Below, in pieces: positions 427 to 50,809 of a stretch of DNA of 64,000 nt. Both the position numbers and the translations under genes were made by a program. The notes beneath the pieces were generated by a model. That model was not told the DNA's origin. It saw only the letters and a program-made list of their open reading frames with translations, and did no database searches. Within the stretch, counting starts at the first letter, position 1. The number at the start of each line of letters is the position of its first letter. The stretch comes from Escherichia coli (GTDB lineage Bacteria; Pseudomonadota; Gammaproteobacteria; Enterobacterales; Enterobacteriaceae), in the NCBI RefSeq assembly GCF_050920415.1, contig NZ_CP169309.1. The stretch is one strand, 5' to 3'.

Positions 427-1323
427 ATGACAGACACACACTATATTGGTCGCTTCGCCCCCTCTCCTTCTGGCGAGCTTCATTTTGGCTCTCTGATTGC
501 CGCGCTTGGAAGCTTTCTACAGGCTCGCGCCCGGCAAGGTCGCTGGCTTGTTCGCATTGAAGATATCGATCCGCCTCGTGAAGTTCCCGGTGCCGCAGAG
601 ACCATCCTGCGCCAGCTGGAACATTACGGTCTACACTGGGACGGCGATGTTCTCTGGCAATCGCAACGTCACGACGCCTATCGCGAAGCACTCGCATGGT
701 TACATGAGCAAGGGTTAAGTTATTACTGCACCTGCACGCGCGCACGTATTCAAAGCATTGGCGGTATTTACGACGGTCATTGCCGGGAGTTGCATCATGG
801 GCCAGAAAACGCTGCTGTACGTATTCGCCAGCAGCATCCGGTCACCCAGTTTACTGACCAGCTGCGCGGCATTATTCATGCCGACCAAAAACTGGCGCGG
901 GAAGATTTTATTATTCATCGCCGTGATGGTTTATTTGCCTATAACCTGGCGGTGGTCGTTGACGATCACTACCAGGGCGTGACAGAAATTGTCCGTGGCG
1001 CGGATTTGATCGAACCCACGGTGCGCCAAATCTCGCTGTACCAGCTTTTTGGCTGGCAGGTGCCAGATTACATTCATTTGCCACTGGCACTTAATCCACA
1101 AGGCGCTAAACTTTCCAAGCAGAATCATGCGCCTGCGTTGCCAAAAGGCGATCCTCGGCCGGTGTTAATCGCGGCACTTCAATTTCTGGGCCAGCAGGCA
1201 GAAACACACTGGCAGGATTTCAGCGTCGAGCAAATTCTCCAGTCAGCCGTCACAAACTGGACGCTGACTACCATTCCTGACTCGGCAATTGTAAATTCAA
1301 CATTCTCAAATGCGTCATGCTGA
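427..1323 (+). CDS. gluQ: Glutamyl-Q tRNA(Asp) synthetase
   Basis: ORF 397..1323; class I aaRS HIGH-like motif ([12 protein letters not shown]) and GluRS-like catalytic domain without anticodon-binding domain; start placed at in-frame ATG 427 downstream of the terminator hairpin (ORF-track ATG 397 lies inside the hairpin loop). Confidence 0.85.
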
Positions 1324-1382
1324 GCTATGATTAGCCGCTATTTTTTTGTCCTGAATGATGTTTGACACTACCGAGGTGTACT

Positions 1383-2780
1383 ATTTTTACCCGAGTCGCT
1401 AATTTTTGCCGCAAGGTGCTAAGCCGCGAGGAAAGCGAGGCTGAACAGGCAGTCGCCCGTCCACAGGTGACGGTGATCCCGCGTGAGCAGCATGCTATTT
1501 CCCGCAAAGATATCAGTGAAAATGCCCTGAAGGTAATGTACAGGCTCAATAAAGCGGGATACGAAGCCTGGCTGGTTGGCGGCGGCGTACGCGACCTGTT
1601 ACTTGGCAAAAAGCCGAAAGATTTTGACGTGACCACCAACGCCACGCCTGAGCAGGTGCGCAAACTGTTCCGTAACTGCCGCCTGGTGGGTCGCCGTTTC
1701 CGTCTTGCTCATGTCATGTTTGGCCCGGAGATTATCGAAGTTGCGACCTTCCGTGGACATCACGAAGGTAACGTCAGCGACCGCACGACCTCCCAACGCG
1801 GGCAAAACGGCATGTTGCTGCGCGACAACATTTTCGGCTCCATCGAAGAAGACGCCCAACGCCGCGATTTCACTATCAACAGCCTGTATTACAGCGTGGC
1901 AGATTTTACCGTCCGCGATTACGTTGGTGGCATGAAGGATCTGAAAGACGGCGTTATCCGTCTGATTGGTAACCCAGAAACGCGCTACCGTGAAGATCCG
2001 GTACGTATGCTGCGCGCGGTTCGTTTTGCCGCCAAATTGGGCATGCGCATCAGCCCGGAAACCGCAGAACCGATCCCACGCCTGGCAACCTTGCTAAACG
2101 ATATTCCTCCGGCGCGTTTGTTTGAAGAATCTCTGAAACTGTTGCAAGCGGGCTACGGTTACGAAACCTATAAACTGCTGTGTGAATACCATCTGTTCCA
2201 GCCGCTGTTCCCGACCATTACCCGCTACTTTACGGAAAATGGTGACAGTCCAATGGAGCGGATCATTGAGCAGGTGCTGAAGAATACTGACACGCGTATT
2301 CATAACGATATGCGCGTCAACCCGGCGTTCCTGTTTGCCGCCATGTTCTGGTATCCCCTGCTGGAAACAGCACAGAAAATTGCCCAAGAGAGCGGCCTGA
2401 CTTATCACGACGCTTTCGCGCTGGCAATGAACGATGTGTTAGACGAAGCCTGCCGTTCACTGGCGATCCCGAAACGGCTAACCACTTTAACCCGTGATAT
2501 CTGGCAATTACAGTTGCGCATGTCCCGCCGTCAGGGTAAACGCGCATGGAAATTACTCGAACATCCGAAGTTCCGCGCCGCTTATGACCTGCTGGCACTG
2601 CGTGCTGAAGTAGAACGCAACGCCGAGCTACAACGTCTGGCGAAATGGTGGGGTGAGTTCCAGGTTTCCGCGCCGCCAGACCAAAAAGGGATGCTTAACG
2701 AACTGGATGAAGAACCGTCACCGCGTCGTCGTACTCGTCGCCCGCGCAGACGTGCGCCGCGCCGTGAGGGCACCGCATGA
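1383..2780 (+). CDS. pcnB: Poly(A) polymerase I
   Basis: ORF 1362..2780; nucleotidyltransferase motif [17 protein letters not shown] and basic C-terminus; recognised protein begins at the Ile codon ATT 1383 ([11 protein letters not shown]...), consistent with the known non-AUG start of pcnB. Confidence 0.9.
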
Positions 2781-3253
2781 CAGTGGCGTATATTGCCATC
2801 GGCAGCAATCTGGCCTCTCCGCTGGAGCAGGTCAATGCTGCCCTGAAGGCAATAGATGACATTCCTGAAAGCCGCATTCTTGCCGTTTCTTCGTTTTACC
2901 GCACCCCACCGCTGGGGCCGCAAGATCAACCCGATTACTTAAACGCAGCCGTGGCTCTGGAAACCTCTCTTACAGCAGAAGAGCTCCTCAACCACACACA
3001 GCGTATTGAGCTGCAACAGGGTCGTGTCCGCAAAGCTGAACGCTGGGGACCGCGCACGCTCGATCTTGATATCATGTTGTTTGGTAATCAGGTCATAAAC
3101 ACTGAGCGCCTGACCGTTCCGCACTATGATATGAAGAATCGTGGATTTATGTTGTGGCCGCTGTTTGAGATCGCGCCGGAACTCGTGTTTCCTGATGGTG
3201 AAACGTTGCAAGCAAGACTCACTACTTTCCCTCCCAGCCCACAGCACTGGTAA
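2777..3253 (+). CDS. folK: 2-amino-4-hydroxy-6-hydroxymethyldihydropteridine pyrophosphokinase (HPPK)
   Basis: ORF 2777..3253, 158 aa [12 protein letters not shown]...; start overlaps pcnB stop (ATGA). Confidence 0.93.
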
Positions 3254-3758
3254 ACCACATTCCTGGAAAAACGTATTGGGTAATGCAATGTTGTATAATA
3301 TTATTTTATAGTTTCAATGAATTAATTCTCTCTCCCCCATCATATAAATCACAAAAAAACAGCATTAAAAATATAATTACGGCAAATATATTTTCATTAC
3401 CTATATTAACTTTTCTCTTTATAAGAGGTTTTTAATGATAATTAACCAATTTATTCTGAGTACTATGCCTCACTCCCGGTATTAGCACTGGATAGCACTT
3501 AATTGGATTCTGTCAGGCTGGGACGGGGGCAACAAGTGCATACAACGACCTGTCCTTAACGCGTAATTATTAATTTCTACAGCGTATTATCACATTATTT
3601 AAACCTGCCCAACCTCACCAAATACATTCATAAAATGCATAATTATAATAAATCATAAAAATCCATTCACCGAAGATATTTTTCTTTAAAGAGTGTGGCA
3701 TTTATAATAAGTTTTGGTGAGAAAATTCACCACCATTAATTTTAATAAGGATATTTCT

Positions 3759-4325
3759 ATGTTAAATAAAAGTGCTATTGCTGCGGCATTAGTCATGTTC
3801 ACCAGTTCAGCCTTCGCGCTTGATGGCGGTCAATTAGATTTCTCAGGTTTGGTCAGTGACAATACCTGCGCCCTGCACGTCAACGGTGGCGCGCAGGACG
3901 GTCAAATTACTCTGCAAACCGCTACAACCGCTGAAGTTAATGGCGCAGGTGTCGTAAAGACTGCCGACGTTGGTGCAAAACCGGAAGCCTTTTCTATTGC
4001 GATAGATTGCTCGGGCGATCCAAAAAATAACGCCAGTCTGAGCATGGGTTCTGTGTTCTTCAGTAACAGCCAGGGCACTCTGAACAACGATCTCTCTATC
4101 AGCCAGGCGGCAACCGGGGTCGCTATTGCCATTCACTACCTTACCAATGCCACCACCTACCAACAGGTGAAAGTTAACGACAGCACCGATGTTAAAAACC
4201 TTGTGTTTACCAACGGCAAAGCGGTTTACAACTTTAAAGCGTCGTATGTTAAACAGGCAGCAACAGTTGACGCAACGGCAGGTTATGTCAAAACCAACGC
4301 CGCTTATACAGTGACTTATCAGTAA
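3759..4325 (+). CDS. yadN: Fimbrial major subunit-like protein (chaperone-usher pilin)
   Basis: ORF 3714..4325; ATG 3759 preceded by RBS taagga; N-terminal signal peptide MLNKSAIAAALVMFTSSAFA; pilin-like C-terminal beta-strand (YTVTYQ). Confidence 0.88.
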   Translation: MLNKSAIAAALVMFTSSAFALDGGQLDFSGLVSDNTCALHVNGGAQDGQITLQTATTAEVNGAGVVKTADVGAKPEAFSIAIDCSGDPKNNASLSMGSVFFSNSQGTLNNDLSISQAATGVAIAIHYLTNATTYQQVKVNDSTDVKNLVFTNGKAVYNFKASYVKQAATVDATAGYVKTNAAYTVTYQ

Positions 4326-4381
4326 ATCTCTGCATCACCCGACAGCCCACTGCTGTCGGGTAACTCAATAAGGATAGTGTT

Positions 4382-5125
4382 ATGACCAGGATGTGTCAGT
4401 TTGTTGTTTCCGCTGTTTTCATCGCATCGACAGCCGTTTTCAGCCTCACCGCGCAAGCAGATATCGTGCTTTCCGGTACGCGCATTATTTACAATGCAGA
4501 CCAGAAAGACGTTACTTTGCGCATGGAAAACAAAGGCGCCCGCCCATTATTAGTCCAGACCTGGATTGATACCGGCAGCGAGAATGCCGACCCCAGCACA
4601 TTGAAAGTGCCTTTTACCGTGACGCCACCGGTTTCCCGCGTTGATGGTAAAAAAGGCCAAACGGTTAAAATTGCGTGGAACGCCAGCCAGACCCTTCCAG
4701 CCGATCGCGAAAGCATTTATTGGTTCAATGCGCTGGAAGTTCCCCCCAAGATGAGCGATGCCGATGCCAAAGGAAAAAACATTCTGCAACTGGCTTTCCG
4801 CACCCGTATCAAGCTGTTCTATCGCCCAACCGGTCTGGCGGGTAACCCGGCTGATGCACCAAAACAGTTAACCTGGCGTCTCCAGTCTTCAGCCGGAAAA
4901 GTGGTGCTGCAGGCGACAAACCCTACGCCTTATCACGTCTCATTCAGCAGCATTACCCTTGGCTCAGGCGGTAATAAATATACCGTGGAGACCAGTATGG
5001 TCGCACCCATGAGCAGTGCGGAAATGGTGGTAAAAGGCGCTCCCCGTTCTGTGTCTGGTGCAACAGTTGATTACTCCGCCATTAATGATTTTGGCGGTGG
5101 CATTGACGGCCAAGTCAAACTTTGA
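4382..5125 (+). CDS. yadV: Periplasmic fimbrial chaperone (PapD-like)
   Basis: ORF 247 aa with signal peptide and PapD-family chaperone layout; sits between pilin and usher genes. Confidence 0.88.
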   Translation: MTRMCQFVVSAVFIASTAVFSLTAQADIVLSGTRIIYNADQKDVTLRMENKGARPLLVQTWIDTGSENADPSTLKVPFTVTPPVSRVDGKKGQTVKIAWNASQTLPADRESIYWFNALEVPPKMSDADAKGKNILQLAFRTRIKLFYRPTGLAGNPADAPKQLTWRLQSSAGKVVLQATNPTPYHVSFSSITLGSGGNKYTVETSMVAPMSSAEMVVKGAPRSVSGATVDYSAINDFGGGIDGQVKL

Positions 5126-5157
5126 TGCCCACAAATTATATCGGCTGAGATCGTACA

Positions 5158-7764
5158 ATGAAGCTCCCCTACGATGGCAAAAAAATTCAACGATCGCCGC
5201 TCGCTTGCCTGATTGCGTGCAGCCTGCTGCCCTGTACTCAAAATGTGTGGGGGGCAGACGAGACCGTTGAGTTTGATAACACGTTCCTGATGGGCGCAGG
5301 CGCCAGGGATATTGATGTCAATCGTTACAGCAAAGGTAACGCAACATTACCTGGACGCTATGACGTCAGCGTGTTTATTAATAACCAGGCCAGCGCCAAT
5401 CTGAAAATCGAGTTTATTGAATTAGACCCTAAACACGCTGCTCAACCCTGCATCTCCGCGAACACGTTATTACAGCTGCATATTCGCCAGCCAGAAAAGC
5501 TAACGGATAACGCAATTTTGCAAAAACGCGAAAATGCTGCGCAGGATTGCCTCAACCTAGAGGTTGCTATTCCGCAATCAAGCGTCGCTTACAACAGCAA
5601 TGATCAGCGGCTTGATATCAGCATGCCGCAAATCTGGCTGCAAAGAACCTATGCCAACTATGTCGACGCCTCACTCTGGGATGAAGGCATCAATGCCGCA
5701 ATGCTCTCTTACACCCTTAACGGCTGGCGCAGTGAATCCCCCAATCAAACCACAGAAACCAGCTACGCCGGACTAATGGGCGGTATCAATTTATGGGGAT
5801 GGCATTTTCGCTCACATGGTAACTATTCGTGGGACAAAGAGGACGGCGGCAGTTTTGAATTTCAGGATAAATACCTGCAACGCGATATCGCCGCGCTTCG
5901 CTCTCAACTGGTGATGGGTGAAACCAATACCACAGGAGAAACCTTCGACTCGGTTCCTATTCGCGGGATGCGACTCTATAGCGAAAGCCGCATGTTGCCA
6001 CCCACGCTGGCATCGTATGCTCCCGTTATCCGTGGCGTGGCAAACTCTAACGCGAAAGTCACGATCACCCAAAACGGCTATAAAATTTATGAAACGACCG
6101 TGCCACCAGGGCCATTCGCGATTGACGATCTCACTCCGGCAGGGTTCGGTGCCGACCTCGAAGTGACCATCACCGAATCGGACGGCTCAAAGCGTACGTT
6201 TAGTCAGGCCTATTCATCGGTGATCCAGATGATGCGTCCCGGCGTAGGCAAATGGGATATCAGCGGCGGTGAGGTCAATAAAGAGGAACTTCAGGATAAA
6301 CCGAACCTGCTGCAAGGGACCTACTATTACGGATTGAGCAACACCTTCACCGGCTACACTGGTCTGCAAATGACCGATAACGGCTACTGGGCCGGTTTAC
6401 TGGGGGTGGGGATGAATACATCGCTGGGCGCATTCTCCTTCGATGTTACTCAGTCTCATGCCGAAATCCCTGACGATAAAACTTATAGTGGGCAGAGCTA
6501 CCGTATTTCATGGAATAAATATTTCGCCCCGACCGAAACGTCACTCAACATTGCCGCCTATCGCTACTCCACTGAAAACTATCTGGGGCTAAACGACGCG
6601 TTAACGCTGATTAATTCAGCCAATCATCCTGATGAAGAGGACTACTCGGGTATTGTCAGTTATGCGCGCATGAAAAATCAGTTCAGCGTTAGCATTAACC
6701 AAACGTTAAAAAGTGATGAACGTGACTATGGATCTTTCTATGTGAATGGCACATGGACAGATTACTGGGTAACCAACGAATCACAGAGCAGTTTTTCCTT
6801 TGGCTACAGTAATTCCTTTAACTGGGCGAGCTACAGCGTCAGCCTGCAACGCACATACGATGAAGACAATAAGAAGGATGATTCAGTTTACCTGAGCGTG
6901 ACCATTCCGCTTGATAAACTGCTGGGTCGTGATAGCCGCCAGGGTGGCTTCAAAACGCTGAACACCAGCGTTAACAGCGATATGAAAGGGAGTTCGCAAT
7001 ATAACGCCATTGCCTCGGGCTACAGCCAGGATAATCGCTGGAGTTACAGCGTGAATACCGCCTATAACGCGCAGAAAAACAGTGACAGCCTGAAAAGTAT
7101 CAGCGGTTATACCAGCTATGAATCGCCGTGGGGAACATTTTCAGGCTCAGCCTCCACCAGTAGCGATCACTCACGTCAGTATGGGCTCAGCACCGATGGC
7201 GGTTTTGTACTCCACCGCCACGGTCTGACCTTCAGTAACGACAGTTTTACCGACTCTGACACGTTGGCGCTGATCAACGCCCCCGGTGCAAAGGGCGCGC
7301 GCATTAACTTTGGTAACAGCACCATCGATCGCTTTGGGTACGGCGTGAGCAGTTCACTGTCACCGTATCGGGAAAATACTGTCGTGCTCGATGTTAACGA
7401 TCTGGATAACGACGTGGAGCTCAAAAACACCAGTAGCATCGCCATTCCGCGCCAGGGTTCCGTCATTTTCAGCCATTTTGACACCGACACCGGGCGTTCT
7501 GCCATTCTCAATTTACTGCGCAGCAACAATCAGCCCGTGCCGTTTGCTTCTGATATTACCGACGAAAAAGGGACCTCTATCGGGACCGTCGGACAGGGTA
7601 GTCAGGCATTTGTACGTGGTATTGCCGACAGCGGTGAATTGACGGTCACCTGGTATGAGAAAAATAGTCGCCAGCAGTGCCGTATTCATTATCAGATACC
7701 GTCATCACCCACCATGACCGGTAAAACTATCGTACTCAACGGCGTGCCATGCACCCAGCAATAA
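5158..7764 (+). CDS. htrE: Outer membrane fimbrial usher protein
   Basis: ORF 868 aa, usher-sized, with signal peptide and C-terminal Cys pair typical of FimD/PapC family. Confidence 0.9.
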   Translation: MKLPYDGKKIQRSPLACLIACSLLPCTQNVWGADETVEFDNTFLMGAGARDIDVNRYSKGNATLPGRYDVSVFINNQASANLKIEFIELDPKHAAQPCISANTLLQLHIRQPEKLTDNAILQKRENAAQDCLNLEVAIPQSSVAYNSNDQRLDISMPQIWLQRTYANYVDASLWDEGINAAMLSYTLNGWRSESPNQTTETSYAGLMGGINLWGWHFRSHGNYSWDKEDGGSFEFQDKYLQRDIAALRSQLVMGETNTTGETFDSVPIRGMRLYSESRMLPPTLASYAPVIRGVANSNAKVTITQNGYKIYETTVPPGPFAIDDLTPAGFGADLEVTITESDGSKRTFSQAYSSVIQMMRPGVGKWDISGGEVNKEELQDKPNLLQGTYYYGLSNTFTGYTGLQMTDNGYWAGLLGVGMNTSLGAFSFDVTQSHAEIPDDKTYSGQSYRISWNKYFAPTETSLNIAAYRYSTENYLGLNDALTLINSANHPDEEDYSGIVSYARMKNQFSVSINQTLKSDERDYGSFYVNGTWTDYWVTNESQSSFSFGYSNSFNWASYSVSLQRTYDEDNKKDDSVYLSVTIPLDKLLGRDSRQGGFKTLNTSVNSDMKGSSQYNAIASGYSQDNRWSYSVNTAYNAQKNSDSLKSISGYTSYESPWGTFSGSASTSSDHSRQYGLSTDGGFVLHRHGLTFSNDSFTDSDTLALINAPGAKGARINFGNSTIDRFGYGVSSSLSPYRENTVVLDVNDLDNDVELKNTSSIAIPRQGSVIFSHFDTDTGRSAILNLLRSNNQPVPFASDITDEKGTSIGTVGQGSQAFVRGIADSGELTVTWYEKNSRQQCRIHYQIPSSPTMTGKTIVLNGVPCTQQ

Positions 7765-7780
7765 TGTTCCAGGAGAGGAA

Positions 7781-8353
7781 ATGAGAACTTTTTTACTACC
7801 GCCCCTGCTGCTGCTGACGTCGCTTTGTCTCCGCCCTGCACTGGCAACCGATCTTTCGGTCAACTTTACCGCAACAATCAAAGAGACGACCTGTGCCATG
7901 ACGCTCAATGCATTGAATGGGGCCAATATCAGCGGTGATGCCACAGCGAATAACTATTATCTGGATCTGCCTGACATGGGCGTTTCGGACATTGTGAATA
8001 AATCGTCAATGTCGGAGGCTAATTTTAAAATCCTTCCCAGCAATTGTAATAACTATATTTCCAGCATGTCGATGACGCTTAATGGCGCAGTCAGCGGCTA
8101 TACAGATTCGTTAATCGCTAATGACCAGACCGTTTCGGGGCATACCAACTATGTTGGTCTTGGTATTAAACGTATGAACGCAAATGAAAATCTCCGTTTT
8201 AAACTCAACGGTAGCCAGCGAGTCACCTGGACGAGTGATGAAATAAGTAATGGATTGGATCTCACTGCCATGCTTCGTCAGACCACCACAGCGAATCCGA
8301 TCACCACTGGACAATTCCAGGCCAAAGTGACTTTCGTCTTTACCTACGAATAG
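7781..8353 (+). CDS. yadM: Fimbrial subunit-like protein
   Basis: ORF 190 aa, signal peptide, pilin-like C-terminus (VTFVFTYE). Confidence 0.85.
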   Translation: MRTFLLPPLLLLTSLCLRPALATDLSVNFTATIKETTCAMTLNALNGANISGDATANNYYLDLPDMGVSDIVNKSSMSEANFKILPSNCNNYISSMSMTLNGAVSGYTDSLIANDQTVSGHTNYVGLGIKRMNANENLRFKLNGSQRVTWTSDEISNGLDLTAMLRQTTTANPITTGQFQAKVTFVFTYE

Positions 8354-8364
8354 CAGGTTTGTTT

Positions 8365-8961
8365 ATGAATTATCAAAATATAACCTTTGTATTGCTGCTG
8401 TGCTTTGGATATATCGCCATCGGCCACGCCGCCAGTAGCTCTATGGACGTTACGGTACGCGCTAAGGTCATTGCCAGTACCTGCACGGCGGAATTGCGCA
8501 ATGCGCAGGATCAGCAAGCCACCACCATCGCAATTGGCGATGTCTATCTCAACGAGCTTTCCGCTAAATCGAAATACCAGAACTTCAGTCTGGTGTTTTC
8601 AAACTGCGAAGGGTTAGCAAAGGATCAGGCCAAAGTTGTGCTTTCGGCACAGACGGGCTGCGATGGCGCTTCCAGTTCCGGTGGCGGATATCGTAATGAA
8701 CTGACGACGGCGGACGATGATGCGGCAACCGGTGTCGCAGTTGAAGTGTGGACGACGAATCAGCCAGAAGGTCAGGGCAGCATTCAGCTTAATTGTAAAA
8801 CCAAACCGACCAGCATTGTCGATTTAACCGCGGCAACAGGCTCGAATATTGTCCACTGGCCGCTCAGTGCCCGAATTGTCATTGCATCGGATAATACCAT
8901 CGCGGATGTTCGTGCAGGTCAATTCTCCACCAACGCTATATTTTTTGTAACCTATGAGTAG
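8365..8961 (+). CDS. yadL: Fimbrial subunit-like protein
   Basis: ORF 8359..8961 (alternative start); ATG at 8365 with upstream aggt; signal peptide; C-terminus FFVTYE. Confidence 0.82.
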   Translation: MNYQNITFVLLLCFGYIAIGHAASSSMDVTVRAKVIASTCTAELRNAQDQQATTIAIGDVYLNELSAKSKYQNFSLVFSNCEGLAKDQAKVVLSAQTGCDGASSSGGGYRNELTTADDDAATGVAVEVWTTNQPEGQGSIQLNCKTKPTSIVDLTAATGSNIVHWPLSARIVIASDNTIADVRAGQFSTNAIFFVTYE

Positions 8962-9534
8962 ATGATGATGAAAACATTTATCTACATATTCGCACTGTGG
9001 TTTTCATACAATGCCATTGCCGCCAGCACCAATATTAATATGACCGCCAATATTGTCAGCACCAGCTGTAAAGTCACGTTCGACAATAGTGGGAGTATTG
9101 ATTTAGGAACGGTGGATTACAACTACCTGAACAATAATACTTCCGTCGATCGCGTTTATACCGGTGGTCACTCGTTCTACATTTCTGTCAGCGACTGTGC
9201 GCAGGTTGCAGGAAAGAACCCTGCTCGTCTTACAGTGAGTTTTACGCCCGTCGCTGGTACGCTCGGTGCAACAAACCAACAGGTTTTCGCTAATCAGACG
9301 ACTAATGGCGCTAAAAATGTCGGCATCGTGATCTTATCCACTCAGGATGCGCAAAATATTTTCAATGTACTGGATACCCACGGTCAACCGCAGAGCATTT
9401 ATCCTGTGAGTGCCGATCAGTTAGCTAATGCTACCTATCATTTTCATGCGAGGATGCAGAAGGTCGACCTGACGCAAGCCGCGACAGCCGGCTTAGTACG
9501 AGCCAGTGTGTTTGTGGGTGTTTATTATGAGTAA
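8962..9534 (+). CDS. yadK: Fimbrial subunit-like protein
   Basis: ORF 190 aa; signal peptide; pilin-like C-terminus VFVGVYYE. Confidence 0.85.
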   Translation: MMMKTFIYIFALWFSYNAIAASTNINMTANIVSTSCKVTFDNSGSIDLGTVDYNYLNNNTSVDRVYTGGHSFYISVSDCAQVAGKNPARLTVSFTPVAGTLGATNQQVFANQTTNGAKNVGIVILSTQDAQNIFNVLDTHGQPQSIYPVSADQLANATYHFHARMQKVDLTQAATAGLVRASVFVGVYYE

Positions 9535-10775
9535 TGTTTTTCGTTTTCAAGGATGATGAAATGAACCGTTTACAGCTAACAACGTGGGGCAACATTTTAT
9601 TGCTATTATTGCCCCTATATTCAGGCTGCCTCCAGGCCGCATACACACTTGTTGTCGGAGGTAAAGATACCACTGGTGATCGAGTTCAAAACAATGGTCC
9701 GGCTAGTGATGGTTATTCCACTACCATCTATACTACGGGTAGCAGCCAGGTCGTGATTGGGCGTGCCACAGCACTGCAATACAGCAATGTTAAAATCAAG
9801 CTAGATCTGGATACCGCTGCCATTCCTAATACAGGGGTTATTTACTGCTCCCCTGACGGTACGGGCGGACCGATTTCACTGGAGAACCATTTTATTAAAA
9901 GTCCGTACATCTACGATGGTCACCAACTTTTTAAAACCAATATTCAAGGGCTGTATTTTACCGCACGCATGTATGGTCTTTGGTCGTATGGTGTAGAGTC
10001 ATCAGACAACTTTTATATCGGTGATACAAATCCACAACCACTGGATCTTCGCACATCAACGTGCCCGGGCAGTTCTGGATGGTATCTGACCCTTGGTGGC
10101 TTAGTCTCTCAAATGGACATCGACTTATATAACGACGCAACCTTTGACCCCGATGCCAGCGGCAGCATTGCCCTGCTGAGTGACGCACCCTATCACTACT
10201 CTCTGAAAAATCAGTCCCCTGGCGGAAATCTCAAATCCCGTACAATTTTTCAGACGTTTAATATGGGAAATGTCACGTTAACCTCTCCTACCTGTTTGTC
10301 GGCGGTCCTCACTGGCAGCAGTGTCAGTCAGGGTGACACGGTAGGTTTGGGCGAATACAGTCCAAAAGAAGTTATTGACGGTGCGAATGGTGTGCCTTTT
10401 TCGATCACACTAAAAGGATGTTACCGGGTAACAGACATCGAAGTAAAATTGACGACAGGAGCTCCTGCGCTATCAGCGTCGCTATTGGGCAACTCGCTTA
10501 CAGCAAATGCGGCAAGCGGTGTAGGTGTAGAGATCAAAGGTAAGCCCAACTCACATTATCCAGAAGTGACGCTGATGCCCAACGACGCCTCCTCAATCTA
10601 TAAAGCGTATGGCGATAACCCGGATAACTCAAACGGTATTATTGGCAGTAACTCTTCGGGTTCTCCTGCCGACCAAACGCTGAATTTCACCGCGACTCTT
10701 AAGCAGGATGACAATCAGCAGATCCGGGCCGGAGATTTTAAAGCGACTGGCATCTTCTCAATCACCTACCCCTGA
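9534..10775 (+). CDS. yadC: Fimbrial tip adhesin-like protein (two-domain pilin)
   Basis: ORF 413 aa; start overlaps yadK stop (TAATG); longer than structural pilins, C-terminal pilin-like strand (GIFSITYP). Confidence 0.85.
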   Translation: MFFVFKDDEMNRLQLTTWGNILLLLLPLYSGCLQAAYTLVVGGKDTTGDRVQNNGPASDGYSTTIYTTGSSQVVIGRATALQYSNVKIKLDLDTAAIPNTGVIYCSPDGTGGPISLENHFIKSPYIYDGHQLFKTNIQGLYFTARMYGLWSYGVESSDNFYIGDTNPQPLDLRTSTCPGSSGWYLTLGGLVSQMDIDLYNDATFDPDASGSIALLSDAPYHYSLKNQSPGGNLKSRTIFQTFNMGNVTLTSPTCLSAVLTGSSVSQGDTVGLGEYSPKEVIDGANGVPFSITLKGCYRVTDIEVKLTTGAPALSASLLGNSLTANAASGVGVEIKGKPNSHYPEVTLMPNDASSIYKAYGDNPDNSNGIIGSNSSGSPADQTLNFTATLKQDDNQQIRAGDFKATGIFSITYP

Positions 10776-10784
10776 GCCCCGCTA

Positions 10785-41656: not shown

Positions 41657-41681
41657 GCCCTCACCCGTGCAGGGTGAGGGC
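41657..41681. terminator. Stem-loop between convergent aroP and ampE (putative terminator)
   Basis: gccctcaccc-gtgca-gggtgagggc 10-bp perfect stem; weak U-tracts. Confidence 0.5.
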
Positions 41682-50186: not shown

Positions 50187-50368
50187 GATGCGACGCTGGC
50201 CTGATAAGACGCGGGCAGCGTCGCATCAGGCATCGTGTGCAAATGTCGGATGCGGCGGGAACGCCTTATCCGACCTGCAAGATCTTTTATATCAACGTGT
50301 TAAAAAATTGTAGGCCTGATAAGACGCGCCAGCGTCGCATCGGGCATCCAGTGTAAATGTTGGATGCC
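50187..50368. repeat. BIME: cluster of 3-4 REP palindromic units
   Basis: Repeated gcctgataagacgcg...cgtcgcatcaggc and gtcggatgcggcg...gccttatccgac units in alternating orientation. Confidence 0.8.
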
Positions 50369-50781: not shown

Positions 50782-50809
50782 AAAAAAGGCGCAGAATCCT
50801 GCGCCTTTT
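50782..50809. terminator. Bidirectional rho-independent terminator between secA and mutT
   Basis: aaaaaa-ggcgcag-aatc-ctgcgcc-tttt. Confidence 0.8.

Follow-up and report, generated by a model that had tools for sequence, protein, structure and literature searches.

The CFA/I fimbrial operon's cfaB gene reportedly carries an intercistronic stabilizing stem-loop, described by Jordi et al. in 1993. Decay-terminator stem-loops of fimbrial operons (CFA/I cfaB, papA and CS6 cssB-cssC) immediately follow the structural-subunit gene on its 3' side, the assembly genes lying farther 3', and their expected outcome is a subunit in excess of the assembly machinery. Differential segmental decay has been established for pap and CFA/I (cited in PMC5927463), an excess of subunit is attributed to stem-loops found 3' of fimbrial subunit genes (PMC3373541), and hardly any CS6 protein is made when the cssB-cssC stem-loop is mutated or deleted (PMC8923064). 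Related structures include the intra-operon rho-independent attenuators, with a GC-rich sense-strand hairpin just past a stop codon (PMC3373541), as well as REP/BIME elements and the puf intercistronic hairpin, where the stem-loop blocks 3'-exonucleases and lengthens the life of the upstream cistron relative to the downstream ones (Newbury et al., 1987; Chen et al., 1988, both cited in PMC5927463). Between folK and panB, the K-12/ExPEC Yad operon yadN-ecpD(yadV)-htrE-yadMLKC has been studied in some detail; H-NS silences Yad promoters, and genes within the yad loci are induced unequally, with neither half-lives nor a hairpin being mentioned in that work (PMC13245861). The literature that we searched contained no mention of a yadN-ecpD hairpin.

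Here we characterized a hairpin between the pilin and chaperone genes of a seven-gene chaperone-usher fimbrial operon located between folK and panB, in a stretch of 64,000 nucleotides of Escherichia coli DNA (hereafter, the window). The operon's chromosomal position, gene number and gene order (pilin, chaperone, usher, three subunits and adhesin) are those of the K-12 Yad operon, with which it also shares the chaperone and usher equivalog models. The folK-to-pilin regulatory region (3254..3758, + strand) is AT-rich, with a GC content of 0.315 over 3300-3699 vs ~0.5 in the flanks, and constitutes the predicted promoter region of the operon, displaying promoter-like hexamers at 3348-3377 and 3365-3392. 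As a side observation, the AT-richness of this ~500-nt spacer fits the H-NS silencing known for other yad alleles (PMC13245861). The major fimbrial subunit (pilin) gene, positional counterpart of yadN, spans 3759..4325 (+ strand; 188 aa), is a PGAP CDS in a 100%-identical genome, and matches the Pfam Fimbrial family (PF00419, E = 2e-12); StaA is its best NCBIfam match, at a score below the cutoff. The periplasmic fimbrial chaperone gene (4382..5125, + strand; 247 aa, with PapD_N and PapD_C domains) passes the NCBIfam equivalog PRK09926 with 368.8 bits vs a cutoff of 285, and the outer-membrane usher gene (5158..7764, + strand; 868 aa, with Usher, PapC_N and PapC_C domains) passes PRK09828 with 1362.5 bits vs a cutoff of 830; by their accession names, we take these models to be the EcpD and HtrE types. 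PGAP places the chaperone start at ATG 4391, and an in-frame ATG at 4382, which sits 7 nt past the Shine-Dalgarno sequence AAGGA, is the more likely start. The operon continues with three minor fimbrial subunit genes (7781-8353, 8365-8961 and 8962-9534, + strand; PGAP CDSs, two of the three matching Pfam Fimbrial), and with a gene for a YadC-like, two-domain tip adhesin (9561..10775, + strand; PGAP CDS, its longest ORF opening at 9534) that falls below the cutoff of the NCBIfam fimbrial-like adhesin family PRK09723.

The initial annotation had named the pilin gene yadN, which agrees with its position between folK and panB and disagrees with its sequence, the protein being 53% identical to K-12 YadN and left unnamed by PGAP, as are all genes of the operon. 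Protein identities to K-12 and ST131 amount to 53-54% for the pilin and 54% for the chaperone (the K-12 counterparts being YadN and YadV), which is below the 80% that PMC13245861 uses as its identity threshold for the usher; the operon counts as a Yad operon by position, gene order and chaperone and usher models, and not by sequence identity. As judged from these comparisons, yadN is a positional label only. This allele is rare, since megablast recovered the segment in 14 of 5426 complete E. coli genomes, and strain MFDS1022581 is 100% identical to the window segment.

The folK-panB site itself harbors at least six mutually divergent allelic operons in E. coli (window 3254-10890, L004-L006 and L016-L019), with identities down to 41% for the pilin and 54% for the chaperone. 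Between close variants, divergence is highest in the middle of the pilin gene (3800-4100), as expected for an antigenically diversifying subunit. In E. coli LCP30S3_I5 (L019, 309-2333), the chaperone gene is split by the IS4-like element ISVsa5, and this fimbrial allele is inactivated. Outside E. coli, a pilin-chaperone-usher segment of Pseudocitrobacter vendiensis (NZ_CALSBS010000004.1, 855-3741) is 99.3% identical to window positions 3736-6622, its hairpin being identical and its chaperone protein 100% identical. The homology begins just 23 nt before the pilin ATG, and upstream of it lies an extra pilin paralog with 71% DNA identity; this arrangement suggests a recent horizontal transfer or a cassette-like exchange.

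The hairpin is located at 4337..4361 (+ strand), with a 5' arm at 4337-4346 (ACCCGACAGC), a loop at 4347-4351 (CCACU) and a 3' arm at 4352-4361 (GCUGUCGGGU). The repeat cccgacagc-ccact-gctgtcggg, previously reported at 4338-4360 as a perfect 9-bp stem, lies exactly there and is perfect as described, and its length has to be corrected, since a closing A-U pair makes a stem of 10 bp (4337-4346/4352-4361), with a 5-nt loop and 7 G-C pairs. Eleven nucleotides separate the pilin stop codon (TAA, 4323-4325) from the stem, which ends 20 nt before the chaperone ATG at 4382, in agreement with the ~20 bp annotated. The folding energy calculation proposed along with that annotation gave -18.8 kcal/mol, with z = -6.7 for the 31-nt piece and none of 200 shuffles folding as well, while for the whole 56-nt spacer one of 500 shuffles folded equally well. 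Perfect hairpins of at least 10 bp are expected by chance at 0.43 per 64 kb, that is, ~4e-4 per 56-nt spacer, as calculated from dinucleotide shuffles with loops of 3-8 nt allowed; a chance origin of the hairpin is excluded.

When the operon was surveyed with 32-nt folds, only two strong local folds were found: the pilin-3' hairpin, which is the most stable across the 7.6-kb operon, and a hairpin after the last gene, which is the second most stable (-18.2 kcal/mol, at 10784-10805). The latter (10784..10809, + strand; ACCGGCAGG-UCCC-CCUGCCGGU followed by UUUUG) lies 8 nt past the adhesin stop and is a probable weak terminator before panB. The remaining intra-operon junctions measure 5-32 nt and are unstructured. 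Downstream of the pilin-3' hairpin, the linker at 4362..4381 (+ strand) is single-stranded and A/U-rich, and contains the Shine-Dalgarno sequence AAGGA (4370-4374) of the chaperone gene; it is unpaired in the MFE and centroid folds, Shine-Dalgarno sequence and start codon included, and 6 of 7 E. coli versions have its stretch TCAATAAGGATAGTGTTATG without change. We infer that this linker is a candidate endonuclease entry site, and inspection by eye revealed no clear match to the RNase E consensus (RN|WUU) within it. An RNase III site was rejected for the hairpin, as a stem of 10-11 bp is too short for this enzyme.

The hairpin is a single-copy element: with up to 3 mismatches allowed, the window contains it once, and in the E. 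coli genomes most of the query is matched at the orthologous site alone, the other matches being 19 nt long with E = 6. With one copy per genome at one locus, an identity as REP/BIME or mobile repeat was rejected. An Rfam covariance-model scan of 3200-11200 returned nothing relevant at E <=10.

Folding of the window sequence does not by itself assign the hairpin to a strand: its minus strand folds better (-25.0 vs -18.8 kcal/mol on the + strand), so that the assignment depends on the variants. The 14 E. coli genomes carry four hairpin haplotypes; at stem position 5, the window has G-C, the commonest type (10 of the 14 genomes) has G·U and RMDEC465 has A-U, and changes in the loop extend the stem to 11 bp. 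A scan of genome contigs with the chaperone protein yielded two loci only, both from Pseudocitrobacter, so the covariation rests on the E. coli genomes and three metagenome contigs (L013-L015). These contigs were fetched via an exact 22-nt anchor placed in the adjacent linker, and the conservation of the linker in them is thus partly by construction. The metagenome scan provided two diverged homologues, L014 and L015, displaying 89% and 83% identity over the locus, respectively, with the hairpins ACCUGGCUGCC-CUUCA-GGUAGCCAGGU and ACCUGGCUGCC-AGUAA-GGCGGUCAGGU.

Across the six distinct homologous versions obtained from these genomes and from contigs L014 and L015, which are phylogenetically related sequences, the helix is kept, with 95.5% of 66 cells paired. 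Two-sided changes were found at 4 of 11 pairs (C-G to U-A, G-C to A-U via G·U, A-U to G-C, and A-U to U-A), and one further pair varies via G·U only. None of 500 shuffles reached either the covariation score or the paired percentage, and slid-register controls gave 20-47% pairing. In the MAFFT alignment, the 3' arms of L014 and L015 were shifted by one column; for the pair count, only the arms were used and every loop was exchanged for GAAA, which affects the loop columns alone. Every wobble cell reads G·U or U·G on the + strand, and the opposite strand would have A·C mismatches there; the L015 version folds at -21.0 kcal/mol on the + strand vs -12.6 kcal/mol on the - strand. Furthermore, the loops vary freely (CCACU, CCACGU, CACG, CAAG, CUUCA and AGUAA), so that the conserved trait is the shape and not a recognition sequence. 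The structure is under selection as sense-strand RNA; from the comparison of the variants, the selected object is an RNA helix on the sense transcript of the operon, rather than a DNA or protein recognition sequence. As expected for stabilizing hairpins, structure is maintained over sequence, within the small sample of six sequences.

The position of the structure is constant across unrelated alleles. Every other folK-panB allele examined, including those of K-12, ST131, O157, 214-4, AF39, YZ22PE106 and P. faecalis (whose operon occupies the orthologous folK locus), carries its own, sequence-unrelated hairpin in the pilin-to-chaperone spacer, with energies of -11 to -24 kcal/mol and spacer MFE z-scores of -2.0 to -4.2. 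These hairpins differ in the 8 nt that follow the stem, where U is found six times in ST131, five times in the K-12-like, 214-4 and YZ22PE106 alleles, three times in O157 and P. faecalis, and twice in the window type, AF39 and LCP30S3. At least four independent types are devoid of a U-tract, namely those of the window, P. faecalis, the upstream pilin of P. vendiensis and AF39, which argues that the shared function needs no intrinsic termination. The hairpin of the extra P. vendiensis pilin paralog is a GC structure of 13 bp without U-tract, located 12 nt past the stop and 153 nt from the next gene. The chaperone start lies 19-21 nt past the stem in versions of the window type and of P. faecalis, and 26-78 nt past it in the other alleles.

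In comparison with the described systems, the window hairpin shares with those of CFA/I, pap and CS6 its location between the structural-subunit gene and the assembly genes, and the expected outcome, and it is unrelated to them in sequence; the fimbrial clade also differs, that of the window being of the Yad/Sta type. The CS6 hairpin is likewise variable among strains and mutations there change expression (PMC8923064), and its stem has only 6-7 bp vs 10 bp here. The 3' structure of papA (Båga et al., 1988) is described as a terminator, unlike our reading of the window hairpin. As in the intra-operon attenuators of PMC3373541, a GC-rich sense-strand hairpin follows a stop codon, but the window allele has no U-tract, and the full form is found at this junction in ST131, K-12 and 214-4. 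The mechanism that we propose is the one put forward for REP/BIME and puf, a block to 3'-exonucleases; unlike REP, the window hairpin is not dispersed, and it does not resemble the REP consensus sequences at 21851 and 50244. The K-12 Yad operon also has a hairpin between its pilin and chaperone genes, which is AU-rich with a U-tract, whereas that of the window is GC-rich without a U-tract and unrelated in sequence. Transcription of the K-12 htrE operon is said to start upstream of ecpD (Raina et al., in 1993), which would imply an internal promoter in the 97-nt spacer of that allele. In the window, a search for an internal sigma-70 promoter of the chaperone gene gave no + strand match in or near the spacer, the only nearby match being a 9/12 site on the minus strand (4399-4371), within chance expectation.

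The location of a stable sense-strand stem-loop directly 3' of the more-needed cistron is what is found in stabilizing hairpins, and a role in mRNA half-life is predicted here. The absence of a U-tract in this hairpin and in at least three other independently derived pilin-3' hairpins leads us to prefer an exonuclease barrier as its main mode of action. In our judgement, the chances are about even that the hairpin serves mainly as a 3'-exonuclease barrier (that is, a decay terminator), contributing at most weak termination, and that it brings about an excess of pilin mRNA. Transcription of the operon would start in the AT-rich region that precedes the pilin gene, and the hairpin would form 11 nt beyond the pilin stop, just past the terminating ribosome; with no U-tract after the hairpin, most polymerases would probably continue into the chaperone and usher genes. 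By analogy with the known systems, the polycistronic RNA would then be cut in the A/U-rich linker or farther downstream, and 3'-to-5' exonucleases (PNPase, RNase II) would shorten it until they stall at the hairpin base, so that a long-lived pilin-only mRNA persists and the chaperone-usher portion is degraded. Pausing or stopping at the hairpin may also affect a small share of transcripts. By the same analogy, pilin mRNA would exceed the mRNA of the assembly proteins, as would suit a fimbria, which needs its major subunit in ~thousand-fold excess.

The view of the initial annotation, that intra-operon hairpins of fimbrial clusters keep the major-subunit transcript in excess through mRNA stability or partial termination, matches the published rationale (PMC3373541; PMC8923064; and, for pap and CFA/I, PMC5927463). 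It is essentially textbook, and the comparative evidence gathered here speaks in its favor.

Second to the exonuclease barrier, we considered a partial (leaky) intrinsic terminator or attenuator, at which some polymerases would stop and produce a short pilin-only transcript and others would read through. This is possible, and we hold it as a tentative option rather than a probable one. Both the position and the architecture of the hairpin are terminator-like, U-runs are present in sister alleles (6/8 in ST131; 5/8 in K-12, 214-4 and YZ22PE106) and the homologous variant L014 has GGUUUUC, and such fimbrial stem-loops are termed 'rho-independent' in PMC3373541. In the window, however, the 8-nt tail 3' of the stem (AACUCAAU) has 2 U/8, confirming the lack of a U-tract that had been pointed out before, and the hairpin was not called by a consensus terminator scan, which needs >=5 T in 8. 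E. coli RNA polymerase terminates poorly without a U-tract, and the recurrence of at least four independent hairpin types without U-tracts at pilin 3' ends also stands against termination. For the window allele, an identity as canonical intrinsic terminator was rejected, as the GC stem-loop is present and the U-tract is not; the hairpin is probably a weak intrinsic terminator at best. Since the sister alleles of ST131, K-12 and 214-4 carry U-tracts, the shared or ancestral role could be partial termination, and the window allele a weakened terminator. Partial termination and the exonuclease barrier are not mutually exclusive, the former being more plausible in the alleles that bear U-tracts.

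It is unlikely, in our opinion, that the hairpin acts mainly on the downstream gene, insulating or tuning the chaperone translation-initiation region 9 nt away, be it by blocking inhibitory long-range pairing, by uncoupling the chaperone from pilin translation, or by shielding a processed chaperone-usher mRNA at its 5' end. The nearly constant 19-21 nt between stem and start in the window type and in P. faecalis would fit this idea, as would the loss of the CS6 stem-loop, which lowered protein and raised transcript (PMC8923064), and the protection of papA mRNA by a 5' stem-loop (Bricker and Belasco, 1999, cited in PMC5927463). However, the 26-78 nt that lie before the start in other alleles, and the 153 nt in P. 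vendiensis, indicate that proximity to the chaperone start is not a shared trait. In the MFE fold of two variants, the post-stop sequence also forms a weak helix with the Shine-Dalgarno GGAUA, but this helix is missing from the window version, in which neither the Shine-Dalgarno sequence nor the start codon is paired in the MFE and centroid folds; as an alternative structure sequestering the Shine-Dalgarno sequence, it was rejected.

A more speculative proposal concerns the GC hairpins without U-tract located 8-12 nt past pilin stops, which might be a distinct class gated by the terminating ribosome and not degenerate terminators. The stop spacing of 8-12 nt in three types (the window, P. faecalis and the extra pilin of P. 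vendiensis) suggests such gating, to which we nevertheless assign a very low probability. If true, the efficiency of pilin translation would set how much chaperone-usher RNA is made or survives, amounting to a translation-coupled, termination-independent stoichiometry switch, and its repeated independent origin at a hypervariable locus would reflect strong convergent selection.

Least credible of all is a DNA-level palindrome (a site for a dimeric protein, a cruciform or a recombination signal) or a structure with no function: the locus has many divergent alleles with signs of horizontal exchange, and a dimeric site is formally conceivable for any perfect palindrome, but the arms co-vary rather than being conserved, the G·U intermediates break DNA symmetry and the commonest variant (10/14 genomes) is G·T in DNA terms, identity does not break at the hairpin and divergence peaks in mid-pilin (3800-4100), the element is single-copy and neither REP nor a mobile repeat, and absence of function is countered by the chance expectation of ~4e-4 and the recurrence of a hairpin in all alleles. 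A recombination breakpoint at the hairpin was likewise rejected, the identity profiles being without a step there.

Taken together, the pilin-3' hairpin is most likely an ordinary, long-known device that keeps subunit mRNA above the mRNA of the assembly machinery. If the exonuclease barrier holds, the hairpin would explain how the major subunit exceeds the chaperone and usher from one promoter in a rare Yad/Sta-type operon, and it would offer a handle for engineering or knocking down expression of this fimbria. The current understanding of fimbrial operon regulation is unchanged by these results, this being a textbook design known from pap, CFA/I and CS6. Of wider interest is that a hairpin at one junction has been retained or invented anew, with or without U-tracts, by at least six alleles that cannot be aligned with one another, a natural experiment at a single locus pointing to selection of the structure itself, and not of termination signals or sequence.

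Elsewhere in the window, REP-like palindromes (GCCGGAUGCGGCG...CGCCUUAUCCGGC) at 21851-21882 and 50244-50275, and also within 50192-50345, are among the most stable local folds, and are apparently clustered near 50.2-50.3 kb. Other perfect hairpins of 10-12 bp are located at 27143-27170, 41657-41681, 32430-32460 and 50784-50809, those at 32430 and 50784 having the A-run and T-run flanks that are typical of bidirectional intrinsic terminators.
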